DNA of 63,549 nucleotides from a virus (Duplodnaviria; Caudoviricetes), in the IMG/VR virus record IMGVR_UViG_3300021598_000208, positions 1 through 63,549 of that record; one strand, 5' to 3'. The notes under the pieces were generated by a model, which was not told the origin of the DNA, searched no databases, and saw only the letters and a list, made by a program, of their open reading frames with translations. Below are positions 9,578 to 41,123 of this stretch, one piece after another. The translations under genes and the position numbers were made by a program. Each line of letters opens with the position of its first letter. Within the stretch, counting starts at the first letter, position 1.

Positions 9578-9583
9578 ATTTAA

Positions 9584-9591
9584 TATCTTTG
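9584..9591 (+). promoter_or_regulatory. -7 promoter element TATCTTTG
   Basis: TAnnTTTG in a short intergenic gap. Confidence 0.55.
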
Positions 9592-9598
9592 TAACGAT

Positions 9599-10009: not shown

Positions 10010-10010
10010 T

Positions 10011-10826: not shown

Positions 10827-10839
10827 TAAAAATATATAA

Positions 10840-22051: not shown

Positions 22052-22690
22052 TTATTTTACTTCGTTGATGTCGTAATAAAAAGAGTCGCTATTTGAACTA
22101 ACCCACCTATCGCTCTCAGCTTCTACGCATTGTAGTGTGGTATCCACTTTAAACTCCTTTGGACTAATAGGGAACTCATTAGTAATGAAGTTAGAGTCTT
22201 TCCAAAATATCCTGTTGTTAGGTTGGCATAATAGATACCCATCGTCAGCCAATAGTATGTGACCGCACTTATAATCGCTCGGCTCATCTGAATATGGATT
22301 ACTAAACCAATCAACTGTAAACAAATAAGTTGCCCATACAAGTGATTTATCTTTTAAAATAACCTTGCATCTTTTTTCAGCTAAGTACAAGTACTCAACC
22401 ACACTAACGTTCTCACTAAAGCAATCCCATAGTTGCTTGAAGTCTGCAGGTATATCTTTAGATGGCTCTTCGTAAAACAACTCTGAGATAGGTACTCTAC
22501 TGCGAAGCATTCCGTAGTCAGTCATAATGTGAAACGTAAGTATCTTTCCGGCTATGCTTTGTATTGCAAAGGCGTAGCAGTTGTCAAACGTTAAACTGTC
22601 GCTTTCTTTTTTGGTAAGCCAACTCCTTCTTACTTTCAGTTTAAGGTTTGGGATATTGATGTTTAATACATTTGAATCAGTCGTTGTCAT
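22052..22690 (-). CDS. Hypothetical phage protein
   Basis: ATG 22690 overlaps the helicase end. Contains RVPIS, QLWDCFS and QPNNRIFW motifs. Confidence 0.7.
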   Translation of the reverse strand: MTTTDSNVLNINIPNLKLKVRRSWLTKKESDSLTFDNCYAFAIQSIAGKILTFHIMTDYGMLRSRVPISELFYEEPSKDIPADFKQLWDCFSENVSVVEYLYLAEKRCKVILKDKSLVWATYLFTVDWFSNPYSDEPSDYKCGHILLADDGYLLCQPNNRIFWKDSNFITNEFPISPKEFKVDTTLQCVEAESDRWVSSNSDSFYYDINEVK

Positions 22691-24128
22691 AAAAATCTTT
22701 TTTAAAATGGTTAACGGTATAGTCTTTCTTCTTTGTAACAGCCTTGTAGATGTCGTATTCAATACCACCCTTAGAGAATATCCAATATACTTTATTCTCA
22801 AGGCGTTCCTTTGTGGTCATACGGTCTTTTGACTGCCAATAACTCGTTGCACTAAAGTCAATGTTGTAGAACACCAAGTACTCAGCTTGCTTCAAAGAGA
22901 TTCCTTCTCTGCCTGATACAATCTGAAGAGCGATGTTCTTATGAGTGTCTTCAAAGACACCAAGTTCAGTGGTCAACTCGTCACCAAAAACCTGCTTGAG
23001 TGCATTCAACTCTTCTTTGAACTTGTAGAAGATTCCAATCTTGCATCCCTCAAACTGCTGTTTGATAAACTCTGCTTTGCTTAGGTCAATCACCATTGAC
23101 TCACCATTCTCAAACTTAATAGTCCCTGAGCACAATTGATGAATCTTTGACATCAACTTCACAGGCGTGTCTGCTAATATGGTTTGGCTCTTACCTTCAA
23201 CCACAAGGTCTCTCTTTAGTTTCTGAATTAACTTATAAGTCAACTCGCTCATCTCAACCTGCAGAACCTCTTCGTCAGTCTTTGATAAGAAACCTGCCTC
23301 CTGCTGCGTGTAGCTTATGGTATACTTCTCCATCTCTTTAAGTATCTTATCTGTGCCTCCGCTATAGTCGTTCATCATCAACCCATTTATCTTCTTTTGC
23401 TTTACGTTGACATACTCATCGCAGAATCTGTAGAAACTTTTGTGATGGCTGAATGGACTCGTTGGTATACCATACACCTGATGGTACATCTGTGAGTAGG
23501 ACTCAGGCGTTGGCGTTCCTGATAAAAGTATAACCAATGGATTGTATTTACCTATGACTTGCTTTACCAATACGGCTCTGCCACTTGGCTTGGGAAACGC
23601 TCCCATACTATGTGCCTCATCGCAAATTATCAAATCCCATTTTGCTTTATCGGAAACAAGATGCAGGCTTTCGTAGTTGATGACCTCTATCTTATATCCC
23701 GGATTGAGCGTTGCGTAATCTGATTCAATAGATGATATGGCTTTCTTTTTGGTTACAAACAATACATTTTCAGCATTGCAAAGTTTCGCTATCCCAAGGC
23801 TCGTAAGCGTTTTACCTGTACGCACCTCCATTGCAAGATACAGGAAACGATGCTGCCGCAGGATGTCAACCGCTCGGTTGATTATATCAACCTGATAGTC
23901 CCTGAATTTGAATTTGTTTTCCATCTCGTATAAATTTTTGTAATACTCGCAACTCGTTACGATTCTTTCTATAACTTCTTTTTCTGTATTATATTTTAGT
24001 ACCCTGCGAATCTCGATAGCCTTACCTCGTCCCGTCTTTACTTCTTTGGTTTGAAGTATGATTCTCTTCAAAGACTCGCAGTACTCCAACATTGATTTGT
24101 TGTCCTGACCTGCTAATCTTTCTATCAT
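22677..24128 (-). CDS. SF2 (SNF2-like) helicase
   Basis: RDYQ, MEVRTGKT (Walker A), DEAH, LSGTP, GREGISL and QSKDR motifs. Confidence 0.9.
   Translation of the reverse strand: MIERLAGQDNKSMLEYCESLKRIILQTKEVKTGRGKAIEIRRVLKYNTEKEVIERIVTSCEYYKNLYEMENKFKFRDYQVDIINRAVDILRQHRFLYLAMEVRTGKTLTSLGIAKLCNAENVLFVTKKKAISSIESDYATLNPGYKIEVINYESLHLVSDKAKWDLIICDEAHSMGAFPKPSGRAVLVKQVIGKYNPLVILLSGTPTPESYSQMYHQVYGIPTSPFSHHKSFYRFCDEYVNVKQKKINGLMMNDYSGGTDKILKEMEKYTISYTQQEAGFLSKTDEEVLQVEMSELTYKLIQKLKRDLVVEGKSQTILADTPVKLMSKIHQLCSGTIKFENGESMVIDLSKAEFIKQQFEGCKIGIFYKFKEELNALKQVFGDELTTELGVFEDTHKNIALQIVSGREGISLKQAEYLVFYNIDFSATSYWQSKDRMTTKERLENKVYWIFSKGGIEYDIYKAVTKKKDYTVNHFKKDFYDND
22945..22960 (+). repeat. 16-bp palindrome copy 3 (inside helicase)
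   Basis: Exact match, read as VFEDT on the minus strand. Confidence 0.95.
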
Positions 24129-27318: not shown

Positions 27319-27345
27319 AAAAAAAGGGGAAGTATTACCTTCCCC
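27319..27345 (-). terminator. Intrinsic terminator after SSB gene
   Basis: GGGGAAG/CTTCCCC stem followed by T7 on the minus strand. Confidence 0.8.
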
Positions 27346-27367: not shown

Positions 27368-27679
27368 TTAGAACGGAAGTTCATCCTCCTCAGGCTCAGG
27401 TTCAACTGCTTTTGTCCCATCCCCCTTTGGTTTAGCTTCCTGTGGTGCTTCTGCTTTCATTCCGTTTTGAGCAGGCTCGTAAGTGTCTAACTCAACGTAG
27501 TAGTTCCCGCTACGAGCAGTCTTGATGTTGAGGTTTACCCAACCATTCTTCTCGTGCTGTCTGATGAATGCAACTGCATCATCTGATTTCATTGATAAGC
27601 GACCTACTACAAAGTCGGGTGCTTTTTCGTTTCTCTTGAATGAGAATCCGTCTGCAAAGATTTTTTCGTCTTGTGCCAT
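27368..27679 (-). CDS. Putative single-stranded DNA-binding protein
   Basis: Small beta-rich domain, flexible linker and acidic EEDELPF tail; next to recombination genes. Confidence 0.65.
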   Translation of the reverse strand: MAQDEKIFADGFSFKRNEKAPDFVVGRLSMKSDDAVAFIRQHEKNGWVNLNIKTARSGNYYVELDTYEPAQNGMKAEAPQEAKPKGDGTKAVEPEPEEDELPF

Positions 27680-27754
27680 TGTTCTTGAATTTATTTGTTG
27701 CCTCAGTCTGTTTTAACCAACCATCAACCTCTGAGGCTAAGCTAATGATTAGTG

Positions 27755-27837
27755 TAGTCAGGGTAGGATTCGAACCTACAATTCGGAGACTGAGGTATTT
27801 AATCTCAGCTTTCGTCTACCATAACGACTTCCTGACT
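27755..27837 (-). tRNA. Atypical tRNA / tRNA-like RNA (Leu-like)
   Basis: Acceptor stem AGTCAGG/CCTGACT plus A; D arm GTC-GTTATGGTA-GAC; T arm GTAGG-TTCGAAT-CCTAC. The anticodon arm is non-canonical (9-nt loop ATTAAATAC). Confidence 0.7.
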
Positions 27838-27841
27838 TCCT

Positions 27842-27857
27842 GTGTCTTTGAAGACAC
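27842..27857 (-). repeat. 16-bp palindrome copy 4
   Basis: Exact match on the minus strand, 4 nt 5' of the tRNA-like RNA. Confidence 0.95.
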
Positions 27858-27882
27858 TTGCTTCGGGGGGAGCAAAAATAAT

Positions 27883-28629
27883 TTATAACAAGTACTCGTC
27901 AATGTAATAGTTTGCGATGTCATCTGATGGCTTAGAACTAAAGTACTTTTGGTATACCTCAATTGCTCTGCCAACTTTAGCCTCGCCACCCTTTACAAAG
28001 TCTTCTGTTGGTCTAAAGATACCAAGTACTCCTGTGCCCTTGTCGATTACGTAGAATACCAACGGCTTACCAAACAACTCCTGATAGATATAGCACTGAC
28101 TATCGTAGTTATATGCTTTGGCTGAATACTTAAACTTATGGATGTCTGATGTAGTCTTTAGGTCAATCACTGAATTATCTGTCACAATATCTGCCTTACC
28201 CTTCCACATCATTCCTTGAATATCTGCAACTGCCGGGGTCTCATACTGATTACCGGCTTTGTAAATCTCATCGTAGAACGCAATGTTGCCTTTTATGATG
28301 GATACAAGATTCTGAATCTCATCCTGCTCCTTCTTTAGCATACAGAATGGAAGATTGTTATCCTCGCAGAATGCTTTGTACTCTTTGGTTGTACGTGTGC
28401 TGACATCAACGAATGGCATAGACTTCGCCTTTTCAGGCTCCAAGATTAGCTGATGGAAGTATCTGCCATCCATAAACGCCTTGTTGTCTTCACGGGTCTT
28501 GCCGAAGTCTTGAGGATTGTTTAATAGAACTCCAATGTCTGAATTAGATAGGTAGTTCCTTCCAATACCATTGTAGTATTGGTTGTCATCACGCAGGAGC
28601 GTGAGCAATTCTGATTTGTTCTCTTCCAT
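27883..28629 (-). CDS. RecE/ExoVIII-like PD-(D/E)XK exonuclease (DUF3799-like)
   Basis: YLSNS, G..FH..ILEP, KGKAD...IDLKTT and Y.YDSQ..IY motifs. Confidence 0.8.
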   Translation of the reverse strand: MEENKSELLTLLRDDNQYYNGIGRNYLSNSDIGVLLNNPQDFGKTREDNKAFMDGRYFHQLILEPEKAKSMPFVDVSTRTTKEYKAFCEDNNLPFCMLKKEQDEIQNLVSIIKGNIAFYDEIYKAGNQYETPAVADIQGMMWKGKADIVTDNSVIDLKTTSDIHKFKYSAKAYNYDSQCYIYQELFGKPLVFYVIDKGTGVLGIFRPTEDFVKGGEAKVGRAIEVYQKYFSSKPSDDIANYYIDEYLL

Positions 28630-28631
28630 TA

Positions 28632-29276
28632 TTATTGGTTGATTAGATTAGCGATTTCTTTCTTCAATGCAGGACTAATGCTGTACTTACGAGTGATTTG
28701 AGCGCCAATCTTATCAATACCCAAAGACTTGTTGTCTGTTACGTATTTGACTACTGCATCCCAATTCGCTGTACCTTTCTTTAAGTCAGGCAATACATCA
28801 TCCCCAACAGCAGGCGCTGTCTTCCTAACAGGCTCAGCTTTTGCTACTGATTCTCCTTCCGGTAAATCCTCTCCTGCATAAATATAAATCCCTAATCCAA
28901 ACATTGCGAGGTTCTTAACCAAGCAACGCATAATGGTTTTGTTGATGTCGAACGTAGTCGCAGCCTCAACCTTCTTGTCGCCAAAGCGTGTGCTATAGCT
29001 ATACTCGGTCTTCTTCATTGACTTGTTCTTGCCATCCATTACAGGCAACCACATCTCAAGCGTTTCGCCTTCGATGGTTACGGTAGTGTGGCACATAAAT
29101 CCAAGAGCATCGTCATACTCAGTCTCTAAGATTTTGTAGGTAGCATCAGGGCAGGCTCTTTTAGTTTCTGACCACGCCCACGCCCAAGATAAATAAGTTA
29201 GGTTGTCTTTCTTCTCAACGTGCTCGTTCACATTGATGGCGGATAGCCTCTCGAAAACTGTCTTTTTGTTTTCCAT
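28632..29276 (-). CDS. Sak3/DUF1071 single-strand annealing protein
   Basis: EKKDNLTYLSWAWAW, WLPVMD and INKTIMRCLVKNLAMFGLG.YIYAGEDLP. Confidence 0.9.
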   Translation of the reverse strand: MENKKTVFERLSAINVNEHVEKKDNLTYLSWAWAWSETKRACPDATYKILETEYDDALGFMCHTTVTIEGETLEMWLPVMDGKNKSMKKTEYSYSTRFGDKKVEAATTFDINKTIMRCLVKNLAMFGLGIYIYAGEDLPEGESVAKAEPVRKTAPAVGDDVLPDLKKGTANWDAVVKYVTDNKSLGIDKIGAQITRKYSISPALKKEIANLINQ

Positions 29277-29309
29277 TTGATTTGATTTGATTATGATTGA
29301 TTGATTTGA

Positions 29310-29612
29310 TTAAATAAAAACTGCTCTCTCCATATCCTTCACAATAGAGACATAGTCTTTATCGTGTGTGATTCTCTGCTCAACCGCAGCGATTCCGTGA
29401 ATGATTGATGAGTGCTTGATGTCATAGCCCGCTTCATTCATAAACTTCTGTATGTATGTGATTTGCATAGGTCTCTTTGCGCATAAATAATACACCAAGT
29501 GCCGAGCATCTACGAACTCTCTCTTCTTTGATTTGGAGAATATATCCTCCTTGCTGATGCTGAATAGGTCTGCGACCCTTTCGACATACTGATTAAAAAC
29601 ATCTTGCTTCAT
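29310..29612 (-). CDS. DnaA C-terminal (domain IV)-like HTH protein
   Basis: SKSKKREFVDARHLVYYLC...HSSIIHG. Confidence 0.75.
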   Translation of the reverse strand: MKQDVFNQYVERVADLFSISKEDIFSKSKKREFVDARHLVYYLCAKRPMQITYIQKFMNEAGYDIKHSSIIHGIAAVEQRITHDKDYVSIVKDMERAVFI

Positions 29613-29634
29613 ATACCTGATTTAATTAGGGGAA

Positions 29635-29642
29635 CAAATATA
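29635..29642 (-). promoter_or_regulatory. -7 promoter element TATATTTG
   Basis: Intergenic TAnnTTTG on the minus strand. Confidence 0.6.
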
Positions 29643-29666
29643 GTGAATTTGTTCAAACATTGTTCA

Positions 29667-29912
29667 TTAATTTTTTTCTTTTTTATCAATTAGCATAGAC
29701 TCTGCCTCATCGAGTGACTTGCTTGATAAGTCTTCTGATATGTAAAACTCTCCGGTCTTTAGCAATTGGATGTAACTACCATCATAGTAGTGTACAACGT
29801 CTGTGCAGTCTTTGTGTAGGATTTCGGCAGGATTGTTTTTAAGAAATGAATCTCGTGCGGTGAACCTACCTGAATCAATAATTCTCGCTCTTTCTTCTGT
29901 TGTAATAGCCAT
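29667..29912 (-). CDS. Hypothetical protein
   Basis: ATG 29912 lies downstream of the promoter at 29965. Confidence 0.6.
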   Translation of the reverse strand: MAITTEERARIIDSGRFTARDSFLKNNPAEILHKDCTDVVHYYDGSYIQLLKTGEFYISEDLSSKSLDEAESMLIDKKEKN

Positions 29913-29964
29913 AGGATTTGATTTGTGCCCACCGAAGTGGGCGTTAATTAGATTAAATTCCGTA

Positions 29965-29972
29965 CAAATATA
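29965..29972 (-). promoter_or_regulatory. -7 promoter element TATATTTG
   Basis: Intergenic; same ACTATATTTGT context as 29635, 37120 and 45536. Confidence 0.6.
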
Positions 29973-29978
29973 GTACAA

Positions 29979-30296
29979 TTATTTGTAAAAAACAAGGTCT
30001 GAATATTTTACATACACAAAACCATCGTGAGTGATTTTGTCTGCGCTGTCCCAAGATTCTTTCGTGATGATGTGACCATCCGGAAACTTAGGATTTGATT
30101 CCAACTCCTGCTTTAACTTCTGAACGTAGAGCGTGGCATCCATCAACTCTTCTTGAAGATGGTTTAGCCATTGAATTAGCGTCAGTTCATTCTCCTCAAG
30201 TGTCGTCCCGTATTTCTTAACGCCCACATCTGAGCGACTGCTGAATTTTGAAATGACATTCTCAACGACTCTGTCTTTTTTTTCTTGATTATCCAT
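29979..30296 (-). CDS. Phage protein, possible MazG-like all-alpha fold
   Basis: G.KKYGTTL...WLNHLQEELMDATLY. Confidence 0.55.
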   Translation of the reverse strand: MDNQEKKDRVVENVISKFSSRSDVGVKKYGTTLEENELTLIQWLNHLQEELMDATLYVQKLKQELESNPKFPDGHIITKESWDSADKITHDGFVYVKYSDLVFYK

Positions 30297-30684
30297 AAAT
30301 AACCTCCCCCATAGTTAGATATTGAAATACTACATCTGCTGAACCGGCATCGCCTTCCTGACGCATATGTCTCTCCAACGCCCACCTCTCATCACTATCT
30401 GATAGCAACTGAAGACGTGCTTGCAATGTTCCACGTGTAATAATACCAACTACCTCATCTTCGTCCATTGCGTCATTGATTGGTACTTTCACATCGTGGT
30501 CTAAGATAGCCTTTACTATTGCTGTGCTCAGGTATGGGTCTTCGCTCTTAGGCACTGCCTTCCTGATTGCTGCTACTGAATCGTCAGGTAGGTAATACCA
30601 ATAGTTACTGCCACCTTCTAATGCTGTTACAAAAATGTCTTCTAAGACTTCTCTGCTTACTCCTTGAATGATTTTGATTTCCAT
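30289..30684 (-). CDS. Hypothetical protein
   Basis: TALEGGSNYW...DAGSADVVFQ...GEVIYG; operon tiling. Confidence 0.75.
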   Translation of the reverse strand: MEIKIIQGVSREVLEDIFVTALEGGSNYWYYLPDDSVAAIRKAVPKSEDPYLSTAIVKAILDHDVKVPINDAMDEDEVVGIITRGTLQARLQLLSDSDERWALERHMRQEGDAGSADVVFQYLTMGEVIYG

Positions 30685-30685
30685 A

Positions 30686-31006
30686 TTAATCTTGATTTTG
30701 AATTGATTTGATTTCTAATGTGTCGCACGCATCGTCAATGGCATTCCATATTTGCTCGATGGTTGCTGTGTTTGTAAGTGCCATATCAAGAACCTGCTGT
30801 GCCTGTTCCTGTGTGCATTCGTAGTTCTCTGTCACGTCATCTGTCATCCAAAGATTTTCTACAAAGTAGCCTTTCTTCCGGAGCAGTGCCCGTGCCTCAA
30901 GTACGTCTTTTAATTTGTTTTTTGCCTCAATTAACTGACCTCGTAGGTAGTCGATTTCAAGATTGGCGGAGGCAATTGCGCTCATCTCGTAGTGATTTTT
31001 TGACAT
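30686..31006 (-). CDS. Hypothetical protein
   Basis: 106 aa; operon tiling. Confidence 0.7.
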   Translation of the reverse strand: MSKNHYEMSAIASANLEIDYLRGQLIEAKNKLKDVLEARALLRKKGYFVENLWMTDDVTENYECTQEQAQQVLDMALTNTATIEQIWNAIDDACDTLEIKSIQNQD

Positions 31007-31164
31007 ATGGTTTTGATTAATGGTTTACTAAAACTTACTATTTCTACAACCACAAGCAGCACAATAGCTGCCGGCAGCGATATAACGAAGAACCATACCA
31101 CCTGCACAAGCAGGTAGCACACCCCGTATAATGTTTTAAAAAATGATTTCATCTGTGTCTCCAT
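30982..31164 (-). CDS. Small membrane protein
   Basis: Long hydrophobic stretch; fills the gap between genes (alternative start 31152). Confidence 0.5.
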   Translation of the reverse strand: METQMKSFFKTLYGVCYLLVQVVWFFVISLPAAIVLLVVVEIVSFSKPLIKTICQKITTR

Positions 31165-31363
31165 TGTCTGTAAGTATTACGGATTTAGGATAGGCTTCTC
31201 GTAGTGCCTGCACGTAGTCGTCATTGCTGAATACAAAGTCACTCTCCCGCTCCTCATCAATCATTGGTTGAATGACTGAACGGATTTGCTTTTCGTTTAA
31301 TTGCGTTCCGAGTATAAAACTCTCCTCGTCCCACGCTGATGTTTTGATTCTGAAGATGTTCAT
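31136..31363 (-). CDS. Hypothetical protein
   Basis: ATG 31363 (MNIFRIKTSAWDEE) overlaps the upstream stop codon. Confidence 0.65.
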   Translation of the reverse strand: MNIFRIKTSAWDEESFILGTQLNEKQIRSVIQPMIDEERESDFVFSNDDYVQALREAYPKSVILTDNGDTDEIIF

Positions 31364-31506
31364 TTGTCTTGATTTTTTTGTTTTAAAATGTGTGCGACTT
31401 TGCGTCTCACAATTACTTTTAAGAATTTGTATGTGCAATAAGAACCTAATACCATACCTGCCATTGCACTAAAGAAGCAGGATACGAATAAAACAATTTG
31501 ATTCAT
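31360..31506 (-). CDS. Small membrane protein (48 aa, not in ORF track)
   Basis: MNQIVLFVSCFFSAMAGMVLGSYCTYKFLKVIVRRK...; ATGA coupling with the next gene. Confidence 0.55.
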   Translation of the reverse strand: MNQIVLFVSCFFSAMAGMVLGSYCTYKFLKVIVRRKVAHILKQKNQDK

Positions 31507-31529
31507 AGCCAATTAAATTTAATAAAATT

Positions 31530-31581
31530 TCCGTTTCATCCTTTTAGAATCATCAGTCGGGACAACTCATCCCGATACGGA
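31530..31581 (-). ncRNA. Type III hammerhead ribozyme HHR-C
   Basis: UCCG-UA / UCGGGAU-GAGUU-GUCCCGA / CUGAUGA / UUCU-AAAA-GGAU / GAAA-CGGA. Predicted cleavage after GUA, between 31576 and 31575. Confidence 0.85.
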
Positions 31582-31586
31582 GGGCA

Positions 31587-31602
31587 GTGTCTTTGAAGAC
31601 AC
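31587..31602 (-). repeat. 16-bp palindrome copy 5
   Basis: Exact match, 5 nt 5' of HHR-C. Confidence 0.95.
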
Positions 31603-31617
31603 CACCCTGAGCCAAGA

Positions 31618-32718
31618 CTAAGGTCGGAATCGTAGAACCTCAGTCTCAGTGAACCACTCATCGCAACCACTACAATGGTAGTTCGCAAACATATCGTGCT
31701 CTAAATCGTGGAAGCAATTTACACAAAACGGCTTCTCATTCTCGATGTCGAAGTCACAATCATCGCAATCATCATCCAATATGTCAAGCAGGTTTAACTG
31801 AACGCCACTGCTCGCAGGAATAAACTCTTCACTCTCCAATTCGTCCTGCTCATCATACCAAGCAAGTTTGTTTGAATACTGCTCGTATGTCTTATGGTGC
31901 TCCTCGCCTTTGCCACTCTGCTTGCTGTTGAAATATATCCAACAGGTAACGCTCTTACCTTTGAGCATAACCTGAATTAGTTTCCTCCTGTACCAAACAG
32001 GATGTCCCTCCAATGCGTCCAACTGCGTAAGCGTGTAATTACTTACTTTGAATACATCGACATCGACATTGTGCCCTGTGCCTTTGTCCTCAATCAGATA
32101 GGGCAATCCTTTAATCACTAATGGATACTTGTCTTTTGTCTCGCCACTGCCTAAAAATTTTGAGGTAGTAAGGTAACGGTTGTAATTGCTGTAACCTTTT
32201 TTTAGCGTGCCATATACAGCAATCAAATGGTCTTCAAAGACATTGTCTTTGCTGTACCAAACGCCATCCCTGTGTGTCCACAATTCTCTGTTGTAAATTT
32301 GAAATGTCCGGCTGAATGTATTGATGGTCACGAATCTGCAATCAAACTGCTCAAGATGACTTTTCCACTTGTGACGTGGAATTTCTCCGAGGTTCTCTGC
32401 CAAATGGCGTGAGTCACTTTTCTTTGCTGTGCCTAATGTACGGATAGTCCCGTTCATCATAAGCCACTCCTGTTTGTTGCTGCCGCATCTGAATGGGTGC
32501 GTGTTCTCTTTGTTGATAGCGCCAATGGTAGCATACCTGAAATGCGCAATGTAAGGTCTGTCTGTGTAAAGTACTTTGTACTCTGTAGATTTGTGGTAAG
32601 ATACCTCAAAAGTATCCAACCAAATAACGCCAAGTCCGTGAGGGTTTATTCTCGCTGATGTCTTAGCAACTTCTTTCGGGACAACTCGTCCCTTTTGCTT
32701 GATAATGATAACGCACAT
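31618..32718 (-). CDS. Class II glutamine amidotransferase fused to gamma-glutamylcyclotransferase and Zn ribbon
   Basis: ATG 32718 gives the N-terminal nucleophile Cys2 (MCVII). NPHGLG, HFRYAT.G, NTHPF, NG and SDS motifs, then VYGTLK...LDALEG (GGCT/AIG2), then CxxC..CxxC. Confidence 0.9.
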   Translation of the reverse strand: MCVIIIKQKGRVVPKEVAKTSARINPHGLGVIWLDTFEVSYHKSTEYKVLYTDRPYIAHFRYATIGAINKENTHPFRCGSNKQEWLMMNGTIRTLGTAKKSDSRHLAENLGEIPRHKWKSHLEQFDCRFVTINTFSRTFQIYNRELWTHRDGVWYSKDNVFEDHLIAVYGTLKKGYSNYNRYLTTSKFLGSGETKDKYPLVIKGLPYLIEDKGTGHNVDVDVFKVSNYTLTQLDALEGHPVWYRRKLIQVMLKGKSVTCWIYFNSKQSGKGEEHHKTYEQYSNKLAWYDEQDELESEEFIPASSGVQLNLLDILDDDCDDCDFDIENEKPFCVNCFHDLEHDMFANYHCSGCDEWFTETEVLRFRP

Positions 32719-32738
32719 ACTGATTTGATTTGTGGGCA

Positions 32739-32754
32739 GTGTCTTTGAAGACAC
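32739..32754 (-). repeat. 16-bp palindrome copy 6
   Basis: Exact match, 20 nt upstream of the GATase start. Confidence 0.95.
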
Positions 32755-32822
32755 AGAACCCGATTATTGAACTGATATTGAACGAAGATACGACATAAAT
32801 TAGACATATCCAAATTTATTTT

Positions 32823-32984
32823 TTAATAAACTTTCTTTGCCCTGAATTTTGTTCGCTCTAAATGGGGTCTGTCCACAATGAATTTGTAGTACGCCTTGTC
32901 AACAGCCTCCCACTTTGTGTGGGCGACTACTGACCATACGCATACCTGTCCATAGAATACTTTGAAATAATGTTGACTTTCCAT
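32823..32984 (-). CDS. Small hypothetical protein (53 aa, not in ORF track)
   Basis: MESQHYFKVFYGQVCVWSVVAHTKWEAVDKAYYKF...; has an AAATCAAG leader. Confidence 0.6.
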   Translation of the reverse strand: MESQHYFKVFYGQVCVWSVVAHTKWEAVDKAYYKFIVDRPHLERTKFRAKKVY

Positions 32985-33002
32985 ATTGACTTGATTTAAA
33001 AA

Positions 33003-33284
33003 TTAATAATCATCTTCCAACCTTTCACCTGCATAGGACTCATCGAAGTACCTATCCTTCCTGTACGGATACTTGTCACTCTCGTAACAATCTCCACACC
33101 AATGCCCTGTGCTGTACCCATAGGCGTCACTCTCTTCGCTAACGTTTGCCTTAGTACCACAGCCCCTGCAAGGGACTAAGTTCTCATTGCAACGCTCACA
33201 TAGATTTTCGTCAAACCACATATCGTGGTGACCTTGGGAGCACCCACATCCTGAGCACTCCCATACATCATTTGCTCTTGTCAT
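33003..33284 (-). CDS. Cys-rich zinc-binding protein
   Basis: Four CxxC pairs. Confidence 0.7.
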   Translation of the reverse strand: MTRANDVWECSGCGCSQGHHDMWFDENLCERCNENLVPCRGCGTKANVSEESDAYGYSTGHWCGDCYESDKYPYRKDRYFDESYAGERLEDDY

Positions 33285-33285
33285 C

Positions 33286-33480
33286 TTACTTTCTTTTTGA
33301 TACGTGATAGATTCTGATGCCGTTCTCGATTTTCATATCGATGGGATACACATCCACCAAGACATTGAGGTAGTACTTATACTCCTTTAATTTGTCCTCC
33401 GGTAGATATAATAGCCTGTCGATTACATCTTGAATGGTTTCGTTTCTTTGTTGTTCGGTTGTCATTTGTTCCTTTGTCAT
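33286..33480 (-). CDS. Hypothetical protein
   Basis: 64 aa with AAATCAAATCAAA leader. Confidence 0.65.
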   Translation of the reverse strand: MTKEQMTTEQQRNETIQDVIDRLLYLPEDKLKEYKYYLNVLVDVYPIDMKIENGIRIYHVSKRK

Positions 33481-33492
33481 TTTGATTTGATT

Positions 33493-33618
33493 TTAGTTTT
33501 TTGAATTTGAAGAGATTTCATCTCTCCAATGTTGAATTAAAGTTTTAACAAACACGTATAAAACGATGACTGACAGGCTAATAACTAAAGCCTCTAAAAT
33601 TGTGATGTGTGTGCCCAT
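33493..33618 (-). CDS. Small membrane protein (41 aa, not in ORF track)
   Basis: MGTHITILEALVISLSVIVLYVFVK...; leader AAATCAAATCAAATG. Confidence 0.6.
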   Translation of the reverse strand: MGTHITILEALVISLSVIVLYVFVKTLIQHWRDEISSNSKN

Positions 33619-33637
33619 TTGATTTGATTTTATTGGT

Positions 33638-33853
33638 TTACAATTGAACGCCTAAAACGTCCTTTAATGATTTTGAAATAAATTCGTGACCTCGGCTGAA
33701 TCTATCTTTGATAGTTATTCTGCCAATTTTTAAAGTCCACGTTCCATCTGAAAATTTTGTGATGGTTGACACAGGCGCTGTCTCATCAGGAATAAATCCT
33801 TCCTGTCTGAATACTCCCTGCACTTTCATAGTAAATAAAACATCTTGTCTCAT
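33638..33853 (-). CDS. Hypothetical protein
   Basis: ATG 33853 with AAATCAAATCAAATG leader, just after HHR-B. Confidence 0.65.
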   Translation of the reverse strand: MRQDVLFTMKVQGVFRQEGFIPDETAPVSTITKFSDGTWTLKIGRITIKDRFSRGHEFISKSLKDVLGVQL

Positions 33854-33874
33854 TTGATTTGATTTAAATGGTTT

Positions 33875-33925
33875 CCTGTTTCGTCCTGTTAGACTCATCA
33901 GGCAAGGCAAACACCTTGCGACAGG
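33875..33925 (-). ncRNA. Type III hammerhead ribozyme HHR-B
   Basis: CCUG-UC / GCAAGGU-GUUU-GCCUUGC / CUGAUGA / GUCU-AACA-GGAC / GAAA-CAGG. Predicted cleavage after GUC, between 33920 and 33919. Confidence 0.93.
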
Positions 33926-33927
33926 CT

Positions 33928-33943
33928 GTGTCTTTGAAGACAC
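33928..33943 (-). repeat. 16-bp palindrome copy 7
   Basis: Exact match, 2 nt 5' of HHR-B. Confidence 0.95.
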
Positions 33944-33952
33944 AGGCTCTTT

Positions 33953-34201
33953 TTAGAATCTGTGATACATCGACCCTTTTGCATTCGGGAAAACTGACCT
34001 ATCATATTTGTTGTTTTCAACCCATTTATCGTAACCTTCTAGCAATGCTTTGAACTCTGCCTCGTGGTTTACAGGGTCAAGTTTAACGCACATCAGGTTG
34101 TCCTCAATTTTAGAAAATTTAATTTTTGATTCTGTCAGGTAGCAATCCCACACTTTACTAAAATCAAAATAGTAATGCTCTTGAACGTTTTTAAATGTCA
34201 T
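33953..34201 (-). CDS. Hypothetical protein bracketed by two ribozymes
   Basis: ATG 34201 (MTFKNVQEHYYF...), 82 aa. Confidence 0.65.
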   Translation of the reverse strand: MTFKNVQEHYYFDFSKVWDCYLTESKIKFSKIEDNLMCVKLDPVNHEAEFKALLEGYDKWVENNKYDRSVFPNAKGSMYHRF

Positions 34202-34243
34202 TTTATTTGGTTTTGTGGAGGGTTTCAAACCTCCGGTTTTAAA

Positions 34244-34296
34244 TGCTGTTTCGTTCTTTTGAACTCATCAGGCAGAGCAAACACTCTGCGACAGCA
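34244..34296 (-). ncRNA. Type III hammerhead ribozyme HHR-A
   Basis: UGCUG-UC / GCAGAGU-GUUU-GCUCUGC / CUGAUGA / GUUC-AAAA-GAAC / GAAA-CAGCA. Predicted cleavage after GUC, between 34290 and 34289. Confidence 0.95.
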
Positions 34297-34315
34297 GGAG
34301 GGCAATTTGCCCTCC
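34297..34315. other. GC-rich hairpin abutting the 5' end of HHR-A
   Basis: GGAGGGCAATTTGCCCTCC inverted repeat with no U-tract. Confidence 0.7.
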
Positions 34316-34320: not shown

Positions 34321-35232
34321 TCAATTCTCAATCCATTTGAGGATGTCTTGGTGAACCTCTCCTGTAAGGATATATTTTTGAAATAGCTTCGACAATCTTA
34401 TTACTTCATTCACTTTGTCCTCATTCCCATTGTACATAGATTTTAAAATTGGCGTTACGATTTTAATCATCGAGTCAAATTTGCCCTTCTTATTCACTGC
34501 GAAATTCACAACCTCATACATTAACTCGTAACGCCTCATCATCTGCTTTACTGACTCAAAGCGAGACGGCAACCTGAACTCAAGGCAATTTTCTTTCACG
34601 AGCGCAACCTGATATTTGTAGTGCCAATCATAGCGACCTAAACGCCTTGCCTCATCCTCTGTTACCATCCTCTTATTTTTGTTGCAATAGCTATTTTTTA
34701 GCCTATTTCTAAACAGGGCATAGATGATGCCGGCATAATTACGAACCTCCAATCTAATCTCATTGCCTGTCATTCCCTCCACGCCTAAGGTTATGTGACC
34801 TCCGCAATTTTGAGCGGATGGGCTGAACTTGTCATCGATGATTTTCTCTGCCTTGTGCATCATATCAAAAACCTTCGTGCGCCACATTCCTGCAGGCAAT
34901 AGGGGTAAAATGTGAGTCACTGCCTCATACCCATCCACGCCCGGATGCTCGCCACAGCTTCCGTCACGCTCAAAACCGCAAAACAATTCATATTCACGTA
35001 CTGCGCCTCTGTGCAATGTGTTTTTTTCAACCTCCATTCCGATGGTAAATTTGGCGCTGTATTCCATCCCGTCAAATTTGATAACGTCCCTTTGCTGTGT
35101 CTTTTTAAGACCTGCGATGTCGATATTGCTTTTGCTCTTGTGTAACATTAGCGGAGCGGGTTTGTGATGGTATCTTGTCACTGAACCTCTCATGCTGTCT
35201 CCTGTGGTTGTGTAAACGATTCCTGTATTCAT
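34321..35232 (-). CDS. Putative amidoligase (glutamine synthetase-like carboxylate-amine ligase)
   Basis: GMEVE, RDGS, YEAVT, CGGHIT and LEFR motifs. Confidence 0.8.
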   Translation of the reverse strand: MNTGIVYTTTGDSMRGSVTRYHHKPAPLMLHKSKSNIDIAGLKKTQQRDVIKFDGMEYSAKFTIGMEVEKNTLHRGAVREYELFCGFERDGSCGEHPGVDGYEAVTHILPLLPAGMWRTKVFDMMHKAEKIIDDKFSPSAQNCGGHITLGVEGMTGNEIRLEVRNYAGIIYALFRNRLKNSYCNKNKRMVTEDEARRLGRYDWHYKYQVALVKENCLEFRLPSRFESVKQMMRRYELMYEVVNFAVNKKGKFDSMIKIVTPILKSMYNGNEDKVNEVIRLSKLFQKYILTGEVHQDILKWIEN

Positions 35233-35249: not shown

Positions 35250-35265
35250 GTGTCTTTGAAGACAC
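35250..35265 (-). repeat. 16-bp palindrome copy 8
   Basis: Exact match, intergenic, upstream of the amidoligase. Confidence 0.95.
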
Positions 35266-35269: not shown

Positions 35270-35920
35270 TTAAAATTGAGAATTTAAAAAAGCTACTGCC
35301 TCCGCTACTTCACCGCTCGTGCCATTGGTTTTGATGTTTCCGTTTGCATCAATTTTTAGTGACACTTTTTTGCCGTCTGTATTTTTGTAGGTAAAGGAAA
35401 AGATGGTTTCCGCTCTTGTTTCTACCTGTGCGCCTGTGCCTTCGCCTTCGCCTTCTGCTTCGCCTTCTCCACTGCCTTCGCCTGTTTCTCCACTGCCTGC
35501 GCCTGTTGTTTCCATCTGCTTAGCGAATTTCAATAATCCCTCTAATGACCTGTTAGGCTCTTGACCTTGTGCCTCTGCCTCTTCACATTTGGTTTTGAAC
35601 GTGGCAATGGTTTCCTCCTGTAGTCTGCCTGCCTTTACAACCTTGTAGAAAAAAGACTTTTGCCATCCGAAAACTTTCTGCCCGATTTCCTCATTGCTCC
35701 AAGTGATGCCCTCTTCGTTCATTAGGCTTCTGCCCTCTTCAGAGGCAAACCAATCAACAGCAGAGGTAACCAATTTGGACAGCGCCAATGTTTGTTCAAA
35801 TTTTTTCTTCTTTGCGTTCGTGATGGTTCTTTGCACGCTGCGAATTTCTGTAAGATTCAAACCTTGTTTTACTGCAGGTAGGTTTAGGAAAGCCTGCTCG
35901 ATGTTTAGCAAATTGCTCAT
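35270..35920 (-). CDS. Hypothetical protein with GE-rich linker (first early gene)
   Basis: 216 aa with a GEGSGEGEAEGEGEG repeat. Confidence 0.8.
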   Translation of the reverse strand: MSNLLNIEQAFLNLPAVKQGLNLTEIRSVQRTITNAKKKKFEQTLALSKLVTSAVDWFASEEGRSLMNEEGITWSNEEIGQKVFGWQKSFFYKVVKAGRLQEETIATFKTKCEEAEAQGQEPNRSLEGLLKFAKQMETTGAGSGETGEGSGEGEAEGEGEGTGAQVETRAETIFSFTYKNTDGKKVSLKIDANGNIKTNGTSGEVAEAVAFLNSQF

Positions 35921-36109: not shown

Positions 36110-36125
36110 GTGTCTTCAAAGACAC
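36110..36125 (+). repeat. 16-bp palindrome copy 9
   Basis: Exact match in the divergent non-coding region. Confidence 0.95.
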
Positions 36126-36430
36126 AGGAGGAGGCAGGGAGGAGGAGCGGAGACAGGAGGAGGGATGGCAGGGAGGAGGCACGAGCGCCACAGGAACGGG
36201 AGCGGAGGCGCAATGGTTAGCGCCTCTGCTACTACATAGGCACGCTACGGAAAAGCTAAAAAATCCGGCAGGGGATTTTGAAAACGCACCCCCACCCCCT
36301 CAAAAAAAAATGACTTTCGTTTTCGGGTCGGCTGCGCCAAATGCCCCTATAACCCAAACACTACTACTATCTGAAAATTTTTTTATCTTTACTCTGAAAT
36401 ATTTCTAAAAACGTTTTAAAACAAATTATT

Positions 36431-39177: not shown

Positions 39178-39435
39178 ATGAAACCAATAGGTAAATACAT
39201 TGTAGTCAAAGACATACACGAGACCGTGACTACGGAAAGTGGTCTGATATTGTCAGGCGAGGATACCAATCAGCTTAGATACAAGAAGGCTTCTGTTATT
39301 GCAGCAGGCACTGACGTTGAAGCAATTGAGCAGGGTGATGAGTTGTACTATGACAAGGCTCACAGCTTCACAATGCTGATTGATGATGCGCAATACACTG
39401 TCATCTCAGAACGTGACGTTGTGGTTGTGGTCTAA
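39178..39435 (+). CDS. groES: Co-chaperonin GroES
   Basis: MKPIGKYIVVK...TTESGLIL...VIAAG...GD...ISERDV. Confidence 0.85.
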   Translation: MKPIGKYIVVKDIHETVTTESGLILSGEDTNQLRYKKASVIAAGTDVEAIEQGDELYYDKAHSFTMLIDDAQYTVISERDVVVVV

Positions 39436-39884
39436 TCCTCAGCTTCAGGCTTACGATACTTATTCTCTCTTTGATAAGCGTTCATTTGGATGATAGCATT
39501 CCGGTAAACCTTGTCACTGTAGGACACATTCTTAGCAAACAATGGGTTTGCAGCAGTACTAACGGGGATTTCTTCCCCGTTTAGTATTTTATAGATAGAC
39601 CCAATTATCCTTTTGGATTTGTATGACAGGTCATACAGGGTCTTCTCTTTACCTTTTCTCTTGCGAAAAATTTCTATCCATCCTTGGCGCTTCAGCTTAT
39701 GGAAACGACCTACTTCCCAACTTACGGTCTCGTTAAACTCCAAGAATTTTTCCTGACCGAAGTATCCTTCCGAGTAAAGGAACAGTAAAATATCGAGGTC
39801 AGATTGCCCCAAACCGTATTTTGATTTGATGTAGTACCTAACTACCCTCCAAAATTTTAGGTAATCATTTGGTGGTGTTTTCAT
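39432..39884 (-). CDS. Winged-helix (MarR-like) DNA-binding protein
   Basis: YGL..SDLDILLFLY...FHKLKRQGWIE.FRKR...LYDLS; AAATCAAATG leader; lone minus-strand gene in this region. Confidence 0.55.
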   Translation of the reverse strand: MKTPPNDYLKFWRVVRYYIKSKYGLGQSDLDILLFLYSEGYFGQEKFLEFNETVSWEVGRFHKLKRQGWIEIFRKRKGKEKTLYDLSYKSKRIIGSIYKILNGEEIPVSTAANPLFAKNVSYSDKVYRNAIIQMNAYQRENKYRKPEAED

Positions 39885-40832: not shown

Positions 40833-41123
40833 ATGGCAGACAAGTCAAAAATGCAATGTAACCGTCCTACTGCTTCGGATAGACCGGGCAAGAAGAAGAT
40901 GGTTAAAGCCTGTTCCGGAGGGGAGGAGAAACTCCTCCACTTCGGAGCCAAAGGCTATGGTAATAATTACTCTGCTGCTGCTCGTAAAAGTTTTAAAGCA
41001 AGACATAGTTGCGATACAGCTACAGATAAACTGACCCCAAGGTATTGGGCGTGTAAGAACCTATGGGCAGGACCCGGAGGTTCAACCACTTCTAATCCAA
41101 AAGGTCGTAGAGGAAAATACTAA
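40833..41123 (+). CDS. Small basic phage protein
   Basis: HFGAKGY...ARKSFKARHSC...RYWACKNLW. Confidence 0.8.
   Translation: MADKSKMQCNRPTASDRPGKKKMVKACSGGEEKLLHFGAKGYGNNYSAAARKSFKARHSCDTATDKLTPRYWACKNLWAGPGGSTTSNPKGRRGKY

Follow-up and report, generated by a model that had tools for sequence, protein, structure and literature searches.

Organization of the minus-strand block

The window analysed here, the whole stretch of 63,549 nt, comes from an uncultured freshwater phage, an IMG/VR podophage record with kinship to Flavobacterium Elemovirus and Cellulophaga phages. Its minus strand carries three type III hammerhead ribozymes (HHR-A, HHR-B and HHR-C) and one tRNA-like RNA, and the minus-strand genes are tightly spaced over 8 kb. 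In all likelihood this phage infects Flavobacteriia, and the block from approximately 35920 down to 27326 is transcribed as a single long early/replication RNA. A scan for terminator-like sites on the minus strand between approximately 36000 and 27000 returned a sole strong hairpin with a T-run, at 27345–27326, and two weaker matches at 31121–31094 and 31073–31057. As the only strong site in this interval, 27345–27326 is where the processed operon probably ends. The processing elements, their adjoining hairpins and this site are listed below.

34297–34315, minus strand: GC-rich hairpin before HHR-A, not the signature palindrome (sequence; 9-bp stem in the fold)
34242–34298, minus strand: HHR-A, hammerhead ribozyme type III (RF00008 42.3 bits, E 1e-6; family model R1 72.5 bits; covariation)
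33926–33945, minus strand: signature hairpin before HHR-B, 8 bp, core 33928–33943 (fold)
33872–33928, minus strand: HHR-B, hammerhead ribozyme type III (RF00008 37.9 bits, E 1.7e-5; R1 70.5 bits)
31582–31607, minus strand: signature hairpin before HHR-C, 11 bp with G·U pairs in the extension, core 31587–31602 (fold)
31527–31584, minus strand: HHR-C, hammerhead ribozyme type III (RF00008 32.1 bits, E 7e-4; R1 73 bits)
27842–27857, minus strand: signature hairpin before the tRNA-like RNA, 6-bp stem, no extension (sequence; fold)
27755–27838, minus strand: tRNA-like RNA (cloverleaf fold; tRNA-Sec 21 bits, E 1.6)
27326–27345, minus strand: unrelated hairpin, then seven T (terminator-like site scan)

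Hammerhead ribozymes and their adjoining hairpins

Type III hammerheads were defined by a CUGANGA … GAAA core, an A15.1–U16.1 pair, an NUH triplet, closed stems I and II and an open stem III. All three hammerheads have the full catalytic core (CUGAUGA, GAAA and an NUH triplet). HHR-A has a GUC triplet, stem III from 34295 and predicted cleavage after C34290; the corresponding features are GUC, 33925 and C33920 in HHR-B, and GUA, 31581 and A31576 in HHR-C, which has a non-canonical U/U at positions 10.1/11.1. None of the three reaches the RF00008 gathering score of 48.5, and a gathering-mode search gives zero matches; their RF00008 E-values are still significant (1e-6 to 7e-4), and a family-specific model scores them at 70–73 bits. 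In an alignment of 18 family members, 96.3% of the helix cells are paired and 83 cells are changed on both sides, a level reached by 0 of 500 shuffles; two-sided changes affect 12 of the 15 pairs. This covariation strongly supports all three hammerhead helices, and self-cleavage of the three hammerheads is predicted from their sequences. Stem III comprises only five pairs, A15.1–U16.1 included.

The original prediction had placed a hairpin immediately 5′ of every processing element, and all four pairings were found on the minus strand, each hairpin lacking a U-tract and ending 0–4 nt from its hammerhead or tRNA-like RNA. The hairpin before HHR-A, GGAGGGCAAATTGCCCTCC in the minus-strand reading, is indeed unrelated to the palindrome (the letters first quoted for it are the plus-strand reading); it lies 4 nt past the stop codon of ORF 34321–35232 and 1 nt short of stem III. 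At HHR-B, the 16-mer core GTGTCTTCAAAGACAC occupies 33943–33928, and two extra nucleotides (AG) pair with an upstream CT, so that the resulting 8-bp hairpin at 33945–33926, which begins 8 nt past the stop codon of ORF 33953–34228, abuts stem III. The HHR-C hairpin follows the stop codon of the GATase/GGACT gene and likewise abuts stem III. The hairpin at 27842–27857 comes 25 nt after the PDDEXK exonuclease stop codon, and 4 nt separate it from the tRNA-like RNA. In minimum-free-energy models, hairpin and ribozyme fold side by side, and no alternative pairing of the hairpin with the ribozyme core was seen.

No T-run follows any of the four hairpins, which therefore do not qualify as intrinsic terminators. 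The contrast with the copy at 330, which has eight T after a 12-bp stem, had also been anticipated correctly. The hairpins share their architecture with the T-tract copies, and could be imagined as weak terminators or pause sites of the host polymerase, with the ribozyme only trimming read-through. We regard this as highly improbable, given the absence of a T-run at all four sites and the difficulty of reconciling frequent termination with 8 kb of tightly spaced genes.

The tRNA-like RNA

The fold of the tRNA-like RNA is a cloverleaf. Its acceptor stem (AGUCAGG/CCUGACU, from 27837) has 7 bp, D and T arms are present, the latter reading GGTTCGAATCC, and a 9-nt loop lies where the anticodon loop is expected. 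ARAGORN made zero tRNA calls at this site, and the best Rfam match was tRNA-Sec (21 bits, E 1.6). The RNA is kept in nine relatives, where it spans 72–118 nt with “anticodons” that are inconsistent or impossible, and in one of which it has an encoded GCCA end. On these grounds (no ARAGORN call, an anticodon loop of 9 nt and not 7 nt, and the relatives' anticodons), true tRNA identity was rejected, and it is probably not a decoding tRNA. In the fold, the acceptor stem stacks on the T arm, which contains the motif GTTCGAATCC, as in tRNA-like processing signals, which makes the RNA a candidate substrate of RNase P or RNase Z. A hairpin of at least 6 bp lies within 8 nt of it in five of the nine relatives, and one more relative carries a signature copy of 5 bp; the hairpin link is thus looser here than for the hammerheads.

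The hairpin–ribozyme cassette in related phages

Eighty related loci, fetched regardless of hairpin, were compared with 2660 random positions as a control. The family model detected 153 hammerheads in these loci, all on the gene strand and 133 of them unique. A hairpin of at least 6 bp ending no more than 6 nt from stem III accompanies 122 of the 133 unique hammerheads (92%), versus 11% of random positions, and hairpins of at least 10 bp occur at the same place in 55% versus 0.6%. In 109 of these 122 cases, the hairpin adjoins stem III with a gap of 0 nt. Across the 133, the median distance from stop codon to ribozyme is 31 nt (IQR 27–34), and that from ribozyme end to the next ATG is 24 nt. 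The order of the cassette is stop codon, hairpin, ribozyme, approximately 24 nt and ATG, with tight geometry; the relatives agree with the modular cassette, and with the co-occurrence of hairpin and ribozyme, that had been proposed from the window.

The signature arms of the respective locus are used by 111 of the 133 hammerhead hairpins, and unrelated GC-rich hairpins by approximately 19. Beside the ribozyme, it is thus structure that matters and not sequence, the signature being dispensable there.

The signature palindrome across the genome

The signature core in the window is GTGTC-N6-GACAC. This 16-mer occurs at 11 sites with at most two mismatches, against 0.03 expected. A processing element follows only three of the 11 copies, and four lie inside long ORFs (14473, 22945, 41348 and 57872). 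The copies away from the processing elements are as follows.

330–345, plus strand: variant signature with a TTTAAA centre atop a 12-bp hairpin plus eight T, upstream of ORF 383–1126 (fold)
14473–14488, plus strand: signature palindrome in the 1427-aa ORF 12715–16998, LPD23 domain (sequence)
22945–22960, plus strand: signature palindrome in the SNF2-type helicase gene 22677–24128, antisense to the gene; 9 orthologous contexts
32739–32754, minus strand: stand-alone signature hairpin, without ribozyme, 20 nt before the start codon (ATG) of the GATase/GGACT gene
35250–35265, minus strand: stand-alone signature hairpin, 4 nt past the stop codon of ORF 35270–35920, with the ATG at 35232 17 nt downstream
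36110–36125, plus strand: signature palindrome in the divergent region separating the two gene blocks, with a GGAGG-type, purine-rich tract after it
41348–41363, plus strand: signature palindrome in the DUF5872 gene 41123–41458, frame VSSKT; 17 orthologous contexts
57872–57887, plus strand: signature palindrome in the terL coding sequence, peptide CLQRH, variable linker

The copy at 330–345 is an intrinsic-terminator-like site; 26 orthologous-type terminators with covarying flanks were found, and another class carries the genome's own signature there. The sites at 32739–32754 and in terL are found in relatives with each relative's own signature, and the G-rich tract after the 36110-type copy is similar in relatives. 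The earlier supposition that the palindrome belongs to the processing elements is not supported: it is a genome-wide signature, mostly ribozyme-free (78 of 338 unique signature copies in relatives precede a hammerhead, 200 stand alone and 51 are in ORFs), that occurs in coding sequence and evolves in concert.

The stems of these copies differ according to context. Counting extra sense-strand pairs past the core, with G·U allowed, the mean gain is 4.5 in hammerhead-adjacent copies and 3.8 in T-tract copies, against 1.2 in stand-alone and 0.4 in in-ORF copies. Of the hammerhead-adjacent copies, 88% gain at least three pairs, and the same copies read antisense gain 1.2 versus 4.5 in the sense direction. 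A repeat on 159 exact 16-mer contexts gave 4.7 extra pairs for terminators, 4.25 for hammerheads and 0.5 for terL. Stem lengthening by sense-strand pairs is limited to copies beside a hammerhead or a T-tract. The proposal that the hairpin protects the 3′ end left by cleavage is supported indirectly by these values, since the hammerhead hairpins are reinforced like T-tract terminators and the predicted tail is 6–7 nt. It does not extend to the signature at large, most copies of which (200 stand-alone plus 51 in-ORF of 338) have neither a cleavage element nor a T-tract, so that 3′-end protection is not their general role.

The hairpin might instead mainly help the ribozyme, by stacking coaxially on the short, open stem III (4–5 bp), shielding the ribozyme from upstream coding sequence and allowing fast cotranscriptional folding and cutting. 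A zero gap to a stem III of merely five pairs suits this folding role equally well, as does the replacement of the signature by unrelated GC-rich hairpins beside the ribozyme. A single hammerhead was detected in a cultured relative (elemoA, n = 1), in the 5′ UTR that opens an operon. It has neither a gene nor a hairpin upstream, in line with 3′-end protection, and its stem III is longer, in line with the folding role. We consider a mainly ribozyme-assisting hairpin possible but rather unlikely, because T-tract terminators without a ribozyme are equally reinforced and because the tRNA-like RNA, too, has a hairpin in front of it, both in the window and in five of nine relatives. Assistance to the ribozyme and 3′-end protection are compatible with one another.

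Concerted change of the signature core

Each related genome has its own version of the signature, and orthologous sites have changed in concert, the terL coding site included, so that the encoded peptides shift along with the signature (CLQRH, SLQRD, QLVDEP). Several genomes have a 5-N6-5 core with constant arms and a variable centre. Signature copies inside genes use all of three reading frames and both orientations, and single-mismatch core variants comprise 19 G·U versus 25 A·C, with no sense-strand G·U bias. Many genome-specific sites changing in concert are the mark of dispersed operators, and each of these observations favours the core being a double-stranded DNA site of a dimeric protein (a global operator or “stoperator”), with ribozyme adjacency arising only from the sharing of few intergenic gaps. 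This may be true of the core itself. It does not explain the adjacency, since the hairpins beside 92% of hammerheads with their 0-nt gap, the lengthening of stems by sense-strand G·U and the approximately 19 non-signature hairpins are RNA-level features. Moreover, Pfam and PHROGs scans of approximately 65 ORFs revealed no cognate binding protein: the recognition helix of a DnaA_C-like HTH protein is identical between the GTGTC and GTCCG classes and so does not follow the signature class, and the 150-aa ORF 39432–39884 has only a weak PHROG match to “transcriptional regulator”. Taken as a whole, the operator explanation is distinctly unlikely.

An RNA-binding factor that recognizes the signature hairpin and switches cleavage, termination or decay genome-wide would account for an exact, genome-specific core common to ribozyme-linked, terminator and stand-alone copies. 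It is very unlikely, however, in view of the other hairpins at approximately 19 of the 133 ribozymes, the variable signature loop (UCAA, UUGA, UUAA, UCGA), folds without alternative pairing between hairpin and ribozyme core, and the lack of an RNA-binding protein in the ORF scans. The exact, genome-specific signature nonetheless implies a second, sequence-specific role for a putative factor acting on DNA or RNA, and the constant core points to such a factor being separate from the function of the hairpins beside ribozymes.

Comparison with known systems

In phage T7, RNase III processing of the early mRNA leaves 3′ hairpins. As in T7, a polycistronic early transcript would be cut between cistrons, with the upstream product ending in a stabilizing hairpin; the T7 cut is made by a host enzyme in a long irregular hairpin, whereas a cis-acting ribozyme is proposed here to cut beside a short one of 8–12 bp. 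RNase III sites of the T7 type were rejected, as they need a duplex of approximately 20 bp or more and the stems here, at 6–12 bp, are too short. The REP/BIME elements of enterobacteria are palindromes that recur downstream of genes and can shield the mRNA before them from 3′ exonucleases; they belong to the chromosome, lie outside genes and are associated with RAYT transposases. The palindromes described here are also repeated, but they are phage-borne and occur in ORFs as well, and no RAYT was found. Membership of the REP/BIME class was rejected on the basis of the four copies in long ORFs, the absence of any transposase in the Pfam/PHROGs scans and a GTDB scan in which the matches listed were only chance-level singles, multiple copies occurring on two phage-like contigs only.

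The stoperators of cluster A mycobacteriophages and the KorB OB sites of plasmid RK2 are dispersed operators that co-evolve with their binding protein. They resemble the signature in that each genome has its own version of the site, in ten to thirty near-identical copies of which most lie between genes and some within. They differ in that the ORF scans revealed no binding protein for the signature, and part of its copies, judging by their terminator and ribozyme contexts, clearly appear to act as RNA hairpins. In Neisseria, inverted pairs of DNA uptake sequences double as terminators. This is likewise a sequence-specific DNA signal that occurs within genes as well as between them and can form terminator hairpins, but it belongs to another process (DNA uptake) in another organism and is a precedent for dual use only. 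RiboJ, an engineered synthetic ribozyme insulator, also combines a hammerhead-type ribozyme with a hairpin and standardizes mRNA ends between genetic parts; its hairpin is downstream of the ribozyme, whereas the cassette here is natural and has the hairpin upstream.

For clusters of hammerheads that flank phage and prophage genes, a role in cutting long transcripts to the length of single-gene mRNAs has been put forward (Perreault et al., 2011; PMC3088659). Those clusters are similar in having several hammerheads between phage genes on one strand, but are mostly of type II or other arrangements, whereas the hammerheads found here are of type III and, in 92% of 133 cases, abut a hairpin. A term search of that paper gave zero uses of “terminator” and no description of an obligatory upstream hairpin.

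Proposed role in transcript processing

We lean, with modest confidence, towards self-cleavage 6–7 nt past a terminator-like hairpin generating a protected 3′ end on the upstream mRNA while leaving transcription unstopped. The ribozyme would cut itself 6–7 nt beyond the hairpin base, and the upstream end would then resemble an intrinsically terminated RNA, in which the hairpin is followed by a short tail that carries a 2′,3′-cyclic phosphate. PNPase, RNase II and RNase R are slowed by a stable 3′ hairpin whose tail is short, and tailing is prevented by a cyclic phosphate. Such an end would be a poor substrate for both 3′–5′ exonucleases and polyadenylation, and the downstream mRNA would begin with a 5′-OH and a compact ribozyme fold. 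The tRNA-like RNA could do an equivalent job via RNase P or RNase Z.

The signature palindrome itself forms the core of most hairpins beside ribozymes, and it is also found on its own between genes, at the top of a true terminator and within several genes. The cassette lies between some cistrons of the minus-strand block, and since transcription would go on past each cut, the cistrons could differ in stability. The pairing of hairpin and hammerhead thus suggests that the long early message of these phages may be cut into end-protected pieces.

Hammerhead ribozymes and hairpins in the early region

The window (63,549 bp) corresponds to one complete virus record of IMG/VR, whose large terminase (57663–59912) and portal match PHROG families. 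Its kin by tblastn are Flavobacterium Elemovirus, Cellulophaga and Tenacibaculum phages (31–44% identity). Among GenBank records, the uncultured ‘Podoviridae sp. ctfjg026’ (MW202828.1) is nearest, at 78.5%. Megablast of a 12-kb segment against the GenBank phages returned no match. Gene orientation switches twice: plus strand up to ~20.3 kb, minus strand between ~20.3 and ~35.9 kb, and plus strand beyond ~36 kb. The minus-strand block contains the following features.

34321–35232 (−), Amidoligase_2-like protein (Atlas lead only)
34298–34242 (−), type III hammerhead HHR-A, Rfam score 42.3 bits, triplet GUC
33928–33872 (−), type III hammerhead HHR-B, Rfam score 37.9 bits, triplet GUC
31618–32718 (−), GATase/GGACT fusion protein (GGACT gene)
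31584–31527 (−), type III hammerhead HHR-C, Rfam score 32.1 bits, triplet GUA
27838–27755 (−), cloverleaf-like, tRNA-like RNA, starting 4 nt after an unextended signature copy
Further genes (−): DnaA_C-type HTH protein, Sak annealing protein, PDDEXK exonuclease, primase-helicase and SNF2 helicase

The Atlas places ORF 34321–35232 near Amidoligase_2-like phage proteins; its presence with the GATase/GGACT protein within the ribozyme-punctuated block suggests a small-molecule- or peptide-modifying pathway that is expressed early. On the plus strand, the overlapping large ORFs 12715–16998 and 16889–20293 take the place of a single 3860-aa gene (741–12320) of MW202828.1. Similarity to that gene is found in ORF 12715–16998 only (36% over 96 aa), with no match for ORF 16889–20293, and the counterpart in the window may be split, frameshifted or misassembled. 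K-mer counting picked out repeated 12–22-mers, ACGTATGCGCATAACAAG (three copies) and AGTACCTATACC (five copies, one at 6840 and the other four at 52449–54522). Nearly all copies lie at 52449–54522, inside the tail-fibre gene (50698–55347), and have the appearance of ordinary protein repeats.

All three hammerheads contain the complete CUGAUGA...GAAA core. Their Rfam scores fall under the gathering score of 48.5 (E-values 1e-6 to 7e-4), and a search of the window at the gathering threshold returned no match. In an alignment of 18 family members, 96.3% of cells are paired and 83 cells show changes on both sides; 500 shuffles gave no value as high, and slid controls were 35–44% paired. HHR-C, like several other members of the family, has a non-standard pair at the stem II closing position 10.1/11.1, frequently combined with a GUA or GUU triplet; 6 of the 18 seed sequences have U/U or A/A there.

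Re-examination of the window sequence reproduced the coordinates and spacings originally proposed for the pairs of hairpin and processing element. At HHR-B and HHR-C, flanking nucleotides lengthen the 16-mer GTGTCTTCAAAGACAC, the core of the palindrome repeated throughout this genome (its signature), to 8 and 11 bp, such that the hairpin abuts stem III. The hairpin of HHR-A is 9 bp long, GC-rich and unrelated to the signature. No T-run follows the hairpins 5′ of the three ribozymes and the tRNA-like RNA; the copy at 330 does have one, as had been noted, and it is eight T long. Ribozyme cleavage is predicted to leave a 3′ tail of 6–7 nt. A second hairpin (34216–34235, minus strand; GGAGG...CCTCC with a TTTGAAAC centre) lies directly 3′ of HHR-A, before the next ATG, and resembles the signature of another class of genomes, GAGGGTTCAAACCCTC.

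Conservation of the cassette among related phages

An unbiased sample of 80 related loci was fetched via the GATase/GGACT protein, ignoring the hairpin, and searched with a covariance model built from 18 hammerheads. The model found 153 hammerheads, every one on the gene strand, and also recovered the three window hammerheads plus one from Flavobacterium phage elemoA. No hammerhead was found in the first 50 kb of MW202828.1, and the cultured Cellulophaga phages phi19:3, phi46:3 and phi38:1 and Tenacibaculum phage Gundel_1 gave no match to the model. An Rfam search of 10 related loci yielded one ordinary tRNA only and no other ribozyme class.

Adjacency was scored as a perfectly paired hairpin ending no more than 6 nt from stem III, for the 133 unique hammerheads with full upstream sequence. 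A hairpin of at least 6 bp is present at 122 of them (92%), versus 11% of 2660 random positions in the same loci; the corresponding values are 72% versus 1.7% for at least 8 bp, and 55% versus 0.6% for at least 10 bp. At 109 of these 122 hammerheads, hairpin and stem III adjoin with no nucleotide between them. Most of the 11 remaining hammerheads have displaced or imperfect hairpins, and three (in related loci L171–L173) have a weak 5-bp stem only. The median distance from stop codon to ribozyme is 31 nt (IQR 27–34), and from ribozyme end to the next ATG 24 nt. These tight spacings, together with the adjacency, identify the succession of stop codon, hairpin, ribozyme and gene as a conserved unit, in line with the modular cassette of the original prediction. 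The hairpin has the signature arms of the locus at 111 of the 133 hammerheads; at ~19 it is GC-rich and unrelated to the signature, frequently with a GAAA- or TTCG-type loop. Beside the ribozyme, therefore, it is structure that is kept.

Distribution and concerted change of the signature

The window contains 11 copies of the 16-mer, where 0.03 would be expected. The original prediction placed a hairpin immediately 5′ of every RNA-processing element; this adjacency is confirmed, but most signature copies are elsewhere, and only 3 of the 11 precede a processing element. The others are:

35250 and 32739, stand-alone copies, each located between a stop codon and the ATG that follows
36110, copy in the divergent region
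330, variant atop a 12-bp hairpin, followed by eight T
Four copies within long ORFs (terL, DUF5872, LPD23 protein and, antisense, SNF2 helicase), spread over three reading frames

Directly after the divergent-region copy are purine-rich GGAGG/GGGAGG repeats (36126–36215, plus strand), and G-rich tracts also follow the equivalent copy in related sequences L016, L024 and G004:24779. A scan of IMG/VR for the exact 16-mer retrieved at least 118 stretches; among the matches listed, 159 unique contexts can be sorted into orthologous classes that recur.

Contexts of the exact 16-mer among the IMG/VR matches listed
terL: 35
T-tract terminators with covarying flanks: 26
DUF5872: 17
Before hammerheads: 12
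Antisense in helicase: 9
Upstream of the GGACT gene: 6
Others: 54

Each related genome repeats its own palindrome. The commonest, found in most genomes, is GTGTCTTCAAAGACAC; others are GTGTCTTTAAAGACAC, GTGTCCTCAAGGACAC, GTCTCTTCAAAGAGAC, GTCCGTTCAAACGGAC, TCCGTTATAACGGA, GTCTGTTCGAACAGAC, GAGGGTTCAAACCCTC, GAGAGTTCAAACTCTC, ACGCCTCAAGGCGT, GCTCGTCAACGAGC and GTGTACACATGTACAC. MW202828.1 lacks any copy of the window 16-mer at up to two mismatches and has its own signature, GTGTCGTTAACGACAC, in 14 copies, 11 of which lie between early genes, 14–37 nt upstream of start codons and without a hammerhead. In four classes, the terL linker carries the signature of its own genome: GTGTCTT... (peptide CLQRH), GTCTCTTCAAAGAGAC (SLQRD; three of four genomes), GCTCGTTGACGAGC (QLVDEP) and GAGAGTTCAAACTCCC (one mismatch). 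The peptide CLQRH is not conserved as protein, since MW202828.1 has CYARS at this position. terL is without a signature in six other classes, and in GTGTCCTCAAGGACAC-class genomes it retains the older form or a hybrid. In genomes of two other classes, the local signature is also found at two further sites: upstream of the GGACT gene, and at the terminator that precedes the homologue of ORF 383–1126. Orthologous sites, both intergenic and coding, have changed in step. This pattern requires selection for identity among copies and is a strong sign of a putative sequence-specific factor.

Candidates for the origin of the palindrome or for this factor were sought. The possibility of a host REP element was rejected, as, among the matches listed, a 16-mer scan of GTDB gave scattered single bacterial matches at about the number estimated for chance, and more than one copy on two phage-like MAG contigs only. 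A DnaA_C-like HTH protein was rejected as the factor because it does not track signature class. Pfam and PHROGs searches of ~65 ORFs detected no RNA polymerase, ParB, RAYT/HUH, Cas6-like protein or clear repressor, and Atlas placement of the candidate ORF 39432–39884 yields no name.

Evidence for action as DNA or as RNA

Core and flanks of the palindrome point different ways as to whether it acts as DNA or RNA. In several genomes, only the 5-bp arms GTGTC/GACAC stay fixed, and the 6 nt between them vary among copies (6–7 such sites per locus versus 0.0075 by chance). Single-mismatch core variants have no preference for sense-strand G·U (19 versus 25), and core copies occur inside ORFs and on either strand. 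On these grounds, a dimeric protein on duplex DNA would explain the core no less well than an RNA hairpin does. The orientation of asymmetric loops relative to the gene strand is biased (221 versus 45), with ORF calling being rough there.

For the flanks, additional pairs beyond the core were counted, allowing sense-strand G·U, in 338 unique signature copies from the unbiased loci.

Extra flanking pairs by context
Before hammerhead: mean 4.5; three or more in 88%
Before T-tract: mean 3.8; three or more in 56%
Stand-alone: mean 1.2; three or more in 17%
Inside ORF: mean at most 0.4; three or more in 0–3%

Read as antisense, hammerhead-linked copies have just 1.2 extra pairs. Values in the exact-16-mer set are 4.7 for terminators, 4.25 for hammerhead-linked copies and 0.5 for terL. 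The flanks clearly point to RNA: the reinforcement into a strong RNA hairpin is specific to contexts in which termination or predicted cleavage creates an RNA 3′ end.

The tRNA-like RNA

The tRNA-like RNAs of relatives share the acceptor stem AGUCAGG/CCUGACU and the T arm, with central regions of 72–118 nt. The anticodons that ARAGORN proposes for them are inconsistent or impossible, and one of these RNAs has a GCCA end. The element is best treated as a putative tRNA-like processing signal. A hairpin of at least 6 bp lies within 8 nt upstream in five of nine unique relatives, a sixth has a 5-bp signature copy, and two have no upstream hairpin, so that the link is weaker than for the hammerheads. 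In eight related loci (L168, L171, L176, L184, L187, L191, L206 and L040), true tRNA-Arg(TCT) genes of the early region have no upstream hairpin; an A-run and a GC-rich hairpin come after these genes. Directly 3′ of the tRNA-like RNA, upstream of the SSB-like gene (27368–27679), is the motif CTTAGCCTCAGAGG(T) (27700–27752, minus strand). It has a possible CCTCAG...CTGAGG stem, recurs at this position in seven of nine relatives, and could act as a translational operator or form another structured RNA.

Proposed function of the cassette

Between ~36.0 and 27.0 kb on the minus strand, the sole strong hairpin followed by a T-run is at 27345–27326, which fits a single long transcript with processing sites at the three ribozymes and at the tRNA-like RNA. 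Hairpin protection of 3′ ends created by intercistronic cutting has long been known from T7/RNase III and REP elements, and work in E. coli indicates that such an end resists 3′ exonucleases and tailing. Cleavage in vivo is predicted, and a protective function of the hairpin is plausible. In the best-supported reading, the cassette would give the upstream cistron a terminator-like, protected 3′ end while the polymerase runs on.

Alternatively, the hairpin may stack coaxially on the 4–5 bp stem III and aid ribozyme folding. The elemoA hammerhead (L128 4946–5004, equal to MT497017.1 19082–19140, minus strand; CUGAAGA core, 39.5 bits) is located in the 5′ UTR at the head of an operon, ~20 nt upstream of the ATG. 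It has no upstream gene and no upstream hairpin, and its stem III is longer; this single case fits protection and folding aid alike. The two are compatible, as such stacking may assist folding and yet allow the short 5′ product to depart once cleavage has taken place.

A broader and rather unlikely reading is a genome-wide RNA ‘punctuation’, in which a short hairpin co-evolving with a putative phage or host factor would mark 10–20 sites per genome, some forced into coding sequence (terL). What follows it (hammerhead, tRNA-like RNA, U-tract or nothing) would decide between mRNA 3′ ends, termination and factor-dependent control. Such a system would resemble a boxB/N pair grown into a whole regulon and coupled to ribozymes.

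Hammerhead clusters that flank phage genes have been described, and processing of long transcripts has already been proposed for them (PMC3088659); a review states that the purpose of bacterial and phage hammerheads is still to be defined (PMC6765202). Searches of openly readable full texts found no description of an obligatory hairpin–hammerhead cassette or of such signature palindromes. The co-evolving, genome-wide signature identity of the hairpin is the more surprising result, and its concerted change strongly suggests a putative sequence-specific factor in a widespread group of aquatic Flavobacteriia phages. More than 150 ribozymes of this phage family share one fixed context with a clear testable prediction, namely that ribozyme cleavage would produce a terminator-like, protected 3′ end without ending transcription. 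The cultured phage elemoA is a possible experimental entry point, and the cassette may serve as a natural gene-insulating part in Bacteroidota.
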